Source: Promethearchaeota archaeon
GTDB lineage: Archaea; Asgardarchaeota; Lokiarchaeia; Sigyniarchaeales; SOKP01
DNA length: 64,000 nucleotides
Direction: 5' to 3'
Assembly: GCA_011364925.1 (NCBI GenBank)
Contig: RDOA01000013.1
Span: 1-64,000, forward strand
A program made the position numbers and the translations under genes. Positions 2,420-49,978 of this stretch are shown here, piece by piece. Positions within the stretch are counted from its first letter, which is position 1; each line of letters begins with the position of its first letter. Below the pieces are notes generated by a model. That model saw only the letters and a list, made by a program, of their open reading frames with translations, ran no database searches and had not been told where the DNA came from.

Positions 2420-2602
2420 TACTTTTACTTTTTCTTTCATTGAAAATAAATATGATCAGTATAAACAAATTGATAGTTGAGGATTCGTTCCTCAACAGAA
2501 GATTTCCATTGACAATATTAAAATCTATTAAATCACAGATAAGTAAATTATTAAATACAAATTTTGATATTATATTTAAAAAGACTTTATTTAACTCTCT
2601 AA

Positions 2603-4084
2603 GTGAGAATATTGGAAGAAAACGAAAAATCTTTAACTCCCGAAGAAATTGAAAAACAAAAGAAGATTGTTGAAGACCTCTATAAGAAAGAAAAAGAAGA
2701 AAGAGAGAACTATTTAAAAAGTTTCGAGGAAGAACGAAAAAGGTCGTTTGAAGAAAGCAAAGCTATGATTTCTTCTCTAATCTCTGAAAAAAGTTTCATG
2801 AGAGAAAAACAACGAGAACGGGATTTAGAAAGGATGGAAATAAAACCTGAATTAGAAAAAATCGGCGAAACTATTGAGAAATCTGTCAGTGAAAAAGCAT
2901 TTATGATTGAAAAACATAAAGAAGAAGAGCAGATAAGAAAAGATATAAAACCAGACATCAAAGGGGTAGGAGAAGTAATTAGTAAAATTATAGACGATAA
3001 AGCGTTCCTAATAGAGAAGAGAAAGGAATCAGATGCACAAAGATCAAAATTAAAACCAGATATTGAGAGTACGGGGCAAGCAATTAGTAATAACGTCAAT
3101 ACAAAAGCTTTCTTAATTGAAAAGAAGAAGGAAAGTACTTCAAGTTTACGTGAATTAAAACCAGAAATGCAAACTGCTAGTGAAGCGATTAGCAAATCAA
3201 TAGAGGAGAAATCCTTTTTAAGAGAAAAGCAACGACAAAGCGATCTCGAAAGAATGAAGATAAAACCAGATTTTATGAAAACAGGAGACGCAATCAAGAA
3301 TGTTGTTGCTGAAAAAGCATTTAGAATTGAGAAAAGAAAAGAATTAGAAGTGAAAAAATCACTATTACACCCTGACATAGCGGGAAGAGGCGAAGCTATT
3401 AAATCAGCTATTGACGAAAAAGCTTTTAGAATTGATTTACAAAAAGATAAAGAGAGACAGATAAAAGATTTACATCCAGATATTGAACAAGCAGGAGAAA
3501 GTATTTCAAAAGCTATAAGTGAAAAAGCATTCATGAGAGAAACACAAAGAGAAAAGGATTTCAAACGAATGGAAATGAAACCGGACTTTTCAACGACTAG
3601 CGATGCTATTAGCTCTACCGTTGCTGAAAAAGCATTTAGAATGGAAAAACAACGCGAAATTGACGAGAGAAAAAAGTATATAAAACCCGATTTTGAAAAA
3701 ACAGCCGAAGTAATTAATCCTTCAATACAAGAAAAATCTTTTCTCCGAGATCAGCAAAGAGATAGTGATTCTAAAAGAATGGAAATTAAGCCAGATTTAG
3801 AGAAAGCAAGCCAAGCGATAAAACCTTCTATTGATGAAAAAGCGTTCAGAATTGAAAAACAAAAGGAAATGGATAAACAAAGAATGGAGATTAAACCAGA
3901 AATCGAAAAATTTAGTGAAGCGATCGAAAAAACCATTGGAGAAAAGGCTTTCATGATGGAAAAGCAACGAGAAAGGGATTTGGAAAGAATGGAACTTAAG
4001 CCCGATATAAAAGGTATTGGTTCTAAAATCGAAAGAGATATTGAGAAAATTGAAAAAAAGAAGAAAGACGACTATTCTGAATAG
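2603..4084 (+). CDS. Uncharacterised charged protein made of about 12 tandem 35-aa helical repeats
   Basis: Consensus (K/H)P(D/E)hxxxxxAIxxxhxEK(A/S)FxxEKx(K/R)xxxxx(R)xxh repeats exactly every 35 aa from residue 81. Confidence 0.85.
   Translation: MRILEENEKSLTPEEIEKQKKIVEDLYKKEKEERENYLKSFEEERKRSFEESKAMISSLISEKSFMREKQRERDLERMEIKPELEKIGETIEKSVSEKAFMIEKHKEEEQIRKDIKPDIKGVGEVISKIIDDKAFLIEKRKESDAQRSKLKPDIESTGQAISNNVNTKAFLIEKKKESTSSLRELKPEMQTASEAISKSIEEKSFLREKQRQSDLERMKIKPDFMKTGDAIKNVVAEKAFRIEKRKELEVKKSLLHPDIAGRGEAIKSAIDEKAFRIDLQKDKERQIKDLHPDIEQAGESISKAISEKAFMRETQREKDFKRMEMKPDFSTTSDAISSTVAEKAFRMEKQREIDERKKYIKPDFEKTAEVINPSIQEKSFLRDQQRDSDSKRMEIKPDLEKASQAIKPSIDEKAFRIEKQKEMDKQRMEIKPEIEKFSEAIEKTIGEKAFMMEKQRERDLERMELKPDIKGIGSKIERDIEKIEKKKKDDYSE
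2738..4050 (+). repeat. 105-bp-period degenerate coding tandem repeat (11 complete units 2843-3997 plus partial flanking units)
   Basis: KP/HP codons recur at 2843+105n up to 3998; 'gaaaaagc' (EKA) recurs in register. Confidence 0.9.
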
Positions 4085-4097
4085 AGGTTAGAATCTT

Positions 4098-4652
4098 CTA
4101 AATGTAATTACTAAATTTGATTAACTCATTTAAATCTACATTTTCTAATCTTTTTTTATATTGTAAAAATGAAGGATCAATATTACCATTAAAGTTTTTG
4201 ATTGCTGGTTCAAATTTGTAATAGAAATCTTCCATAACTTGATGTAAAATTACTCTTTCCGCTTGTAGGTTTGTTTTCTTTGAGATGCCAATAACAGTGA
4301 GTCTTCCTTTTCTCTCGTACAAAATTCTGCTTTCTCTAAAATTTACTTCTTGGATTTCATCGTCTATAGAATCTGGCTTTATTTCGTTCATAAATAAATT
4401 AAATGCATTCAAGAATCCACTTATTAAATCTTCGTGAGTTGATAATTTCATGTTATTTGTGTATTTTTTACTTAATAGGAGAGAACCAGTTAAATTGTCT
4501 AAAAAATAAATTGCATGAAACCGATTATTACTGGTTTCAAATTCCCCTAGATTAAATCCATACCACTTCTTGTAATTATTCACAGACCACTTATATGACA
4601 TGTTCTTGCTTTTTATAAACCTAATTATACTACTATTAGAACATGAACTCAA
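4098..4652 (-). CDS. Longin-like domain protein (start probably MSYKW at about 4601)
   Basis: 'AIYFLD..TGSLLLSKKY...DLISGFLNAFNLFMNEI...IQEVNF...ILYE' and C-terminal 'FYYKF...IKNFNGNI', the Asgard longin-like pattern. Confidence 0.7.
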   Translation of the reverse strand: MSSCSNSSIIRFIKSKNMSYKWSVNNYKKWYGFNLGEFETSNNRFHAIYFLDNLTGSLLLSKKYTNNMKLSTHEDLISGFLNAFNLFMNEIKPDSIDDEIQEVNFRESRILYERKGRLTVIGISKKTNLQAERVILHQVMEDFYYKFEPAIKNFNGNIDPSFLQYKKRLENVDLNELIKFSNYI

Positions 4653-4781
4653 AATCGCTTTAAAATGTAAATATTATCTTAGTGACACAATGAAATTATA
4701 AGTTTTTACAACAACACAAAAAAAACTAAAAATTAAAAATAAAAACATTTTATTATTAGACATATCACAGTTTAATTTTAG

Positions 4782-5255
4782 ATGAACATGGCTATAAACA
4801 ATAACAACCTAAAACAAAAAAATAAAATTTCAATAGGCAAAATTCTTTCAAGAGCAGATTTTAAATCTACTATTTTCCCAGATGAAGTTAAAAACGAAAT
4901 CAACGATGCTCCCTACTATTTATTAATTTTCATCTCTCGTGAAGATTCCATTAAAATTAGCTGCTTTCCTGCCCATAATCGTAATATTAAGAAAATTTTA
5001 ATAAAGTTGATTGAATTTTCACCAGATCTCGTTAAGGGTATTTCCACTGTGTTAAACGATCTAAACTTAAGCAGAGATATCCTCCATACAACTGGAATCT
5101 GTTATGAGCTAGAAAATTGCTTCTATGAGACATATTTATTAGGAGATTCATTGAATTCTGGGGATCTATCATTAGAAGAGATTAAAAATAAATTTCTGGC
5201 AATCGAGAAAATCGTCAATGTAGTCATTGAAGACATCCCTGTCCACAAAAAATAA
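4782..5255 (+). CDS. Hypothetical protein with possible C-terminal ACT-like domain
   Basis: 'PDLVKGISTVLNDLNL..ILHTTGIC...FYETY' beta-alpha-beta-beta pattern. Confidence 0.5.
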   Translation: MNMAINNNNLKQKNKISIGKILSRADFKSTIFPDEVKNEINDAPYYLLIFISREDSIKISCFPAHNRNIKKILIKLIEFSPDLVKGISTVLNDLNLSRDILHTTGICYELENCFYETYLLGDSLNSGDLSLEEIKNKFLAIEKIVNVVIEDIPVHKK

Positions 5256-49573: not shown

Positions 49574-49978
49574 ATGTCAGCAGAAATTGAAGCTATTATT
49601 GATGAGTTGCTCTCTGAAGAACAAAATGTTTTTGGAGTTGCGATTATTAACAAATCTGGTTCTCTTCTTACACAAACTCAGAACTGGAACCTTAGCAACG
49701 ATTTAGACCAGATTAACAAATTACTTAATACTCAGCTCGCTCTAGGGCAAAAAGGTATGTCAAGCATAACAATTCAAGGAATTAAATTCATGATGGTTGA
49801 AAATACTGAAGAAAGAAAGATTGGCACGAATATTACGGGTAAAGGGCACATTATTATTGCCCCGATTCCTATAGGCGGTACTGGTGCGTTAGTTTGCTAC
49901 ATTAACCCCCAAGTCGGTCCCCGAGACGCTCTGTTTACCGTTCAATCTTACGCTTTAAAATTACAAAACTTAGTTTAA
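49574..49978 (+). CDS. Profilin (Loki-type)
   Basis: 'GVAII...G....QT.NW', 'SITIQGIKF..VENTEERKIGTNITGKGH....PIPIGG.GAL..Y.NP..GPRD' match my recollection of characterised Loki profilin. Confidence 0.92.
   Translation: MSAEIEAIIDELLSEEQNVFGVAIINKSGSLLTQTQNWNLSNDLDQINKLLNTQLALGQKGMSSITIQGIKFMMVENTEERKIGTNITGKGHIIIAPIPIGGTGALVCYINPQVGPRDALFTVQSYALKLQNLV

Follow-up and report, generated by a model that had tools for sequence, protein, structure and literature searches.

A lineage-specific array of 35-residue helical repeats in Lokiarchaeia, tentatively proposed as a Lokiactin side-binder reached independently of nebulin

Near the start of the window – the whole 64,000-nucleotide stretch of lokiarchaeal DNA analysed here – lies a gene for a protein made largely of 35-residue repeats, which represents a genuine repeat family, not described before and retained by about 80% of the genomes of its taxonomic family. 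The chances that this protein binds some repeated protein partner multivalently are roughly even. Lokiactin is the likeliest single putative partner of the array, albeit a tentative one; that the protein is an independently evolved nebulin analogue, lining and stabilising Lokiactin filaments with one module per subunit, is a possibility held slightly more loosely still. The link of the family to actin, as drawn from sequence, is testable but unproven.

The open reading frame originally called at 2603–4084 on the forward strand (493 aa counted from its GTG) is a real gene, but its start probably lies elsewhere: orthologues carry TTG, ATG or GTG at the position of TTG 2612, with the same GTGAG before it, so that the TTG (giving 490 aa) is a likelier start than the GTG at 2603, and the GTGAG can be read as a putative ribosome-binding site. 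Further upstream, an AT-rich element that would act as a promoter can be aligned with hardly a gap across 11 of 13 upstream regions, drawn from several genera; as both it and the GTGAG are conserved, the repeat gene probably has a promoter of its own. A sigma-70 promoter scan is unsuited to archaea, and a codon-usage proxy put the gene at the 57th percentile, with a reference set of three genes, which makes the figure uninformative. An antisense open reading frame (2710–3564) was taken as a shadow of the repeat, because its limits differ between loci.

Table 1. Coordinates of the repeat gene, its parts and its immediate surroundings in the window
Feature	Position	Strand	Remarks
AT-rich promoter-like element, TATA-box-like core, purine-rich 5' flank	2538..2577	+	conserved upstream of gene
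GTGAG motif resembling a ribosome-binding site, with TTG 2612 as probable start	2603..2614	+	orthologue alignment
35-aa repeat protein gene	2612..4084	+	490 aa; 493 aa if from GTG 2603
N-terminal charged helix (head)	2612..2737	+	conserved, also in sister-family homologues; alignment gap-free
First repeat core, residues 46–80, without Pro	2738..2842	+	12 profile matches in genome
11 exact 35-residue units, residues 81–465	2843..3997	+	Pro, amphipathic helix (4–15), small residue 16, E-K-A-F, charged helix
C-terminal half unit (residues 466–493) and charged cap	3998..4084	+	sequence
Convergent neighbour, longin/roadblock-like by eye	4098..4652	-	no Pfam match; present also where repeat gene missing

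Within the protein, [KH]P[DE] recurs every 35 residues exactly from residue 81 to residue 466, the autocorrelation reaches 0.38 at lag 35 (among other lags only 70 tops 0.15), and the periodicity ranks second among all 20–50-residue periodicities in the genome's open reading frames. The 11 gap-free units and partial ends described in the original prediction are borne out, with the N-terminal piece now recognised as a Pro-less twelfth core bearing K-S-F and the C-terminal one as a half unit. Although the mean pairwise identity of the 11 full units is 43%, P2, I11, K18 and F20 occur in every one of them, with Ala or Ser at position 19. The Ile and the K(A/S)F picked out at the start therefore stand for the window, as does the Pro, but the last is present in only 89% of units family-wide and is absent from the 37-residue units of one distant homologue (G042). 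Across 496 distinct units, flanking positions drift while I11 (99%), K18 (98%), F20 (95%), R/K26 (100%), E27 (86%) and E17 (83%) stay fixed; position 16 is mostly G, S, A, E or D (S/T/G/A, 61%). Positions 4–16 form an amphipathic helix and positions 23–35 are almost wholly charged. The protein is a polyampholyte (E plus K, 33%) lacking Cys and Trp; no hydrophobic stretch was found in its sequence, and it has no significant Pfam match.

AlphaFold2 predicts helices of about 31–33 residues that are interrupted at Pro, as expected of the helical repeat first proposed, with no tertiary packing and no helix break at position 16; pTM is 0.18 for the full-length protein and, with a 90-row alignment, 0.24 for three units, and for the head pLDDT is about 79–88 across residues 11–70. 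Covariation over 678 two-unit segments gives local helical and same-position couplings only, and none at long range. Given these couplings and the lack of predicted packing, a self-contained solenoid – an outcome that would speak against a filament binder – is not supported. Foldseek against the PDB gave no fold match for the repeat protein, the ESM Atlas returned no usable match for the whole protein or a part, and a PDB sequence search produced a single match, to a designed coiled coil (E 6.7, not significant).

Among 400 genomes searched, the unit profile matches 109 of the 134 genomes of the window's Lokiarchaeia family (whose records include Loki_b31, Loki_b32, E44_bin85 and Hel_238_bin105), together with 1 of 14 and 2 of 4 genomes of sister families, which supply three divergent homologues; it matches none of the other Asgard classes or genomes in that set. 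A broader profile of head plus repeat yields an identical tally and one marginal extra match (E 0.003). There is one array per genome where examined, and the locus is syntenic. Two records titled Nanopelagicaceae bacterium and Hodarchaeota (L087 and L093) are contigs of G011 and G012, placed in this Loki genus, and their depositor labels look wrong. A profile search of 1.84 billion protein representatives returned 39 matches, of which 14 were inspected; 13 carry the family motif and one (P0037) is a leucine-rich-repeat-like false match. A word-index protein search, insensitive here, found one homologue only, and none was found on viral contigs. Every homologue found is lokiarchaeal, and the homologues occur in actin-bearing archaea only. 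In three g29 and two g23 genomes, which carry Lokiactin that is 98–99% identical, the flanking genes are adjacent and the repeat-gene site is empty, and profile searches did not find the gene in the three single-contig genomes of a sister family. The gene is thus specific to its lineage, and having actin does not require it.

The longin-like gene downstream is present at 75 of 83 loci. In the window it forms a divergent pair with a 157-aa gene (4098–5255, no Pfam matches), and the two stay together in most loci, apparently also in sister-family genomes. Immediately upstream of the repeat gene, 66 of 83 loci have a 249-aa gene without a Pfam match (L120:4778-5524); considered as an obligatory partner, it was rejected, having no tblastn match in the window's genome. 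The window holds two Rab-like small GTPases (PF00071; 8974–9537 and 21121–21645), and at some loci such a GTPase lies a few genes from the repeat gene. Of the recurrent neighbours within 6 kb, none was recognised as actin or as a regulator of actin, and the profilin cited in support of an actin connection is real (49574–49978, PF00235, E 1.9e-6) but 45 kb distant. Two homologues of a different make-up (family f4; L036:4254-5162 and L159:4987-5892) lie at an unrelated locus and join the same head to three cores of about 38 residues, after which comes a different repeat, rich in Ala and similar in length. Five of 93 homologues (L046, L050, L071, L133 and L001) have, after a flexible linker, an extra amphipathic tail helix that contains Trp and is EKWLxQxKK-like, which recalls ESCRT MIT-interacting motifs or the villin headpiece.

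Strict unit length had been read as the mark of a periodic partner, an argument that is weakened by what the family shows. Spacings of 35 residues dominate (803, against 11 of 32, 1 of 36 and 6 of 37), and the commonest odd unit is 3 residues short, near one helical turn; distant homologues, however, have periods of 33, 37 or about 38, the 37-residue form being the one without Pro. By a rough count, about four independent indel events occurred within the family, compared with about 15 expected from neighbouring genes. Yet the head, which is not repeated, is equally free of gaps (0 over 53 columns in 21 sequences of 34–72% identity), so that long helices here resist indels anyway and no periodic partner is needed. 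The survey of repeat number that had been suggested gives 2 to 13 cores in complete proteins, mostly 9 to 12, so no fixed ruler is indicated and the idea of a length ruler is not supported. Arrays grow via one-unit or three-unit duplications, and a higher-order pattern with a best lag of three units is seen in 30 of 50 proteins.

The comparison with nebulin, made with the Pfam model and published contact positions, separates layout from kinship. The nebulin repeat has Pro at position 5 and SDxxYK at 18–23, with Tyr22 fully conserved; it contacts actin through D3, K11, S18, D19, Y22, K23 and K30, and tolerates units of 31–38 residues, mostly 35 (cryo-ET, 10.1101/2021.10.06.463400). The Loki repeat falls within that spacing, and the tolerance resembles the 32–38-residue periods seen in Loki homologues. 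However, PF00880 (Nebulin) has no match at the locus at E up to 10, nor is it among the matches for 60 units or among the 25 families listed for 27 proteins, and none of the 496 units contains SDxxYK (Tyr is at 3%, the Lys after it at 2%, Ser at 17% and Asp at 8%). With Tyr22 set on Phe20, nebulin D3 falls on Lys/His, K11 on Glu (59%) and K30 on mixed residues, and the full eight-residue contact set scores no better than shuffled columns (p 0.15–0.68). For a relaxed five-feature layout (Pro, small, acidic, aromatic, basic) the best placement sets Y22 on F20, with a shuffle p of 0.045 exact and 0.0015 with a one-residue slip, for a subset chosen post hoc; the distance from Pro to the aromatic is 18 residues in Loki units and 17 in nebulin. 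The search of 1.84 billion proteins returned none of nebulin length, and publications on nebulin together with Asgard were off topic by title and abstract. Homology to nebulin thus fell away, and of the nebulin-like register in the original prediction the layout survives – Pro, kink residue and aromatic, in that post hoc comparison – but not the sequence or the contacts: judged by its sequence, the Loki repeat is no nebulin member and is similar in layout only.

For a rod that has no core of its own yet keeps a few near-invariant residues, the simplest reading would be a binding face, either for a constant partner or for its own copies. The mechanism favoured here envisages a soluble, extended rod of a conserved head helix, variable 35-residue modules and a short cap. 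Each module would consist of a Pro-capped amphipathic helix, a small kink residue, the near-invariant K-A-F and a charged single-helix spacer, and would dock the same Ile/Lys/Phe face on one site of a repeated, highly conserved partner, so that the array would bind by avidity. Were that partner the Lokiactin filament, one module would meet each subunit along a strand (about 5.3–5.6 nm), and the protein might serve as a lineage-specific side-binding stabiliser, reached independently of nebulin and setting no fixed length.

Several observations fit such a partner. Lokiactin is 97–100% identical across the family, a conservation that would fit a frozen binding core; its strand spacing is 2 x 27.9 A = 55.8 A, and the geometric fit first pointed out holds for a 35-residue helix with a short loop. 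A search for tubulin in 29 family genomes found none; four matches came from one single-contig sister-family genome. The net charge over the 496 units is +0.7 per unit, so nucleic acid is not favoured. Lokiactin identity, the spacing fit, the missing tubulin and the near-neutral charge together make actin the leading single candidate. Counting against it are the want of a match to known actin-binding repeats, a full nebulin contact set no better than shuffles, the lack of recognised actin genes near the locus, the g23 and g29 genomes with near-identical Lokiactin and an intact locus but no repeat gene, the three single-contig sister-family genomes in which the gene was not found, and a gap-free length that the non-repeat head shares. 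A second full-length Lokiactin-like gene (L076:1495-2640, G000:C32) is 82% identical to the conserved one, and G018, G035, G247 and most g29 genomes likewise have extra Lokiactin-like copies.

Actin is ranked ahead of self-assembly, another protein partner and a membrane or stress role, in that order. Self-assembly, only slightly less likely than actin, would give a parallel coiled coil or fibre, segmented and in register, that bends at Pro hinges; it might serve as a tether, a spacer or an element of cell shape, longer or shorter according to unit number. Thirty-five residues are exactly five heptads, with I4, I11, I15 and I22 on a/d positions, unit number varies freely between a fixed head and cap, and the commonest odd unit is short by close to one helical turn; in-register contacts would, moreover, escape covariation, and the sole PDB sequence match, however insignificant, is a coiled coil. 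Nevertheless, only 4 of 10 a/d positions are hydrophobic, all in the first three heptads, the second half of the unit is nearly devoid of a hydrophobic moment (0.44 vs 1.69), and helical-wheel reasoning puts the invariant K18 within the stripe and, on a straight helix, the invariant F20 on the face opposite to it.

Less likely again is binding to some other repeated surface – ESCRT-III, FtsZ/SepF filaments, chaperonin or proteasome rings, or small GTPase–longin complexes. The conserved-core argument applies to these as it does to actin, and the longin-like gene, the Rab-like GTPases near some loci and the Trp-containing tail helix, which recalls MIT-binding motifs, point the same way. On the other hand, the neighbours remain where the repeat gene is missing, the nearest of them being convergent, the 29 family genomes yielded no tubulin, and no candidate partner gave a positive result.

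Lower in likelihood stands a chain of amphipathic helices punctuated by Pro that would bind membranes or lipids, or else an LEA-like protectant against stress that would stay disordered until it reached a surface. The charged polyampholyte composition without Cys or Trp and the freely varying unit number would suit it, as would a hydrophobic moment with its maximum near 100 degrees over positions 4–16 and weak Pfam matches to amphipathic small-residue repeats (Entericidin in 18 of 27 members, Senescence, LTI65). Near-invariant K18, F20 and R/K26, by contrast, would suit a stereospecific contact better than a bulk surface, the narrow hydrophobic face takes up under half of each unit, and LEA and Apolipoprotein models are not among the matches listed. 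A true nebulin homologue or nebulin-type actin length ruler is very improbable, and the homology largely refuted: the period of 35, the Pro near the helix start, the small residue four before the aromatic and a three-unit pattern that loosely recalls a super-repeat are outweighed by the absence of PF00880 matches and of SDxxYK, the opposite charges at D3 and K11, the differing Pro-to-aromatic distance, the lack of any nebulin-length match, the failure to find the repeat in the other Asgard classes searched and unit numbers of 2–13.

Asgard actin regulation has been described as mainly a matter of gelsolins and profilins (PMC13716822). If the Lokiactin reading is true, the profilins and gelsolins known from Asgard archaea to date would be joined by a filament side-binding class, within the largest Lokiarchaeia family of this genome collection, and actin side-binding repeats would have arisen twice; found only in one order, the repeat would not be ancestral to nebulin. 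With another partner or self-assembly, it would still be an undescribed repeat family, and a modest finding. New here are the genera with an empty site, the range of 2–13 units, the control on the gap-free head and the scoring of the nebulin comparison.

Among known systems, PPR, TPR and related 34–35-residue solenoids have the period alone in common with the Loki repeat, which lacks their predicted helix-turn-helix packing and long-range couplings and has neither a Pfam nor a fold match. Beta-thymosin/WH2 and RPEL repeats are actin-binding tandem short amphipathic helices of similar period; the likeness lies in those helices and the difference in the profiles, as PF01290 (Thymosin), PF02205 (WH2) and PF02755 (RPEL) have no match at the locus at E up to 10, and the WH2 and RPEL comparison proposed at the outset, done via Pfam models, accordingly came out negative. 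Like nebulin, the Loki repeat has about 35 residues, a Pro near the helix start, a small residue four before a conserved aromatic, a charged character and no fold of its own; unlike nebulin, it has Phe for Tyr and no following Lys, reversed charges at D3 and K11, a Pro one residue further from the aromatic, no LIM or SH3 domain, no seven-unit super-repeat and only 2–13 units. The actin lysine that meets nebulin Tyr22 is presumably Met75 in this Lokiactin (rabbit numbering), a change that removes the nebulin contact and, speculatively, could suit a Phe. That convergent actin-stabilising repeats occur in prokaryotes is shown by the VopV repeat, which belongs to a secreted bacterial effector and serves as a precedent without implying a relationship to the Loki repeat: this Vibrio repeat is unstructured alone, yet binds and stabilises F-actin although it is not homologous to any known actin binder (PMC4650670).
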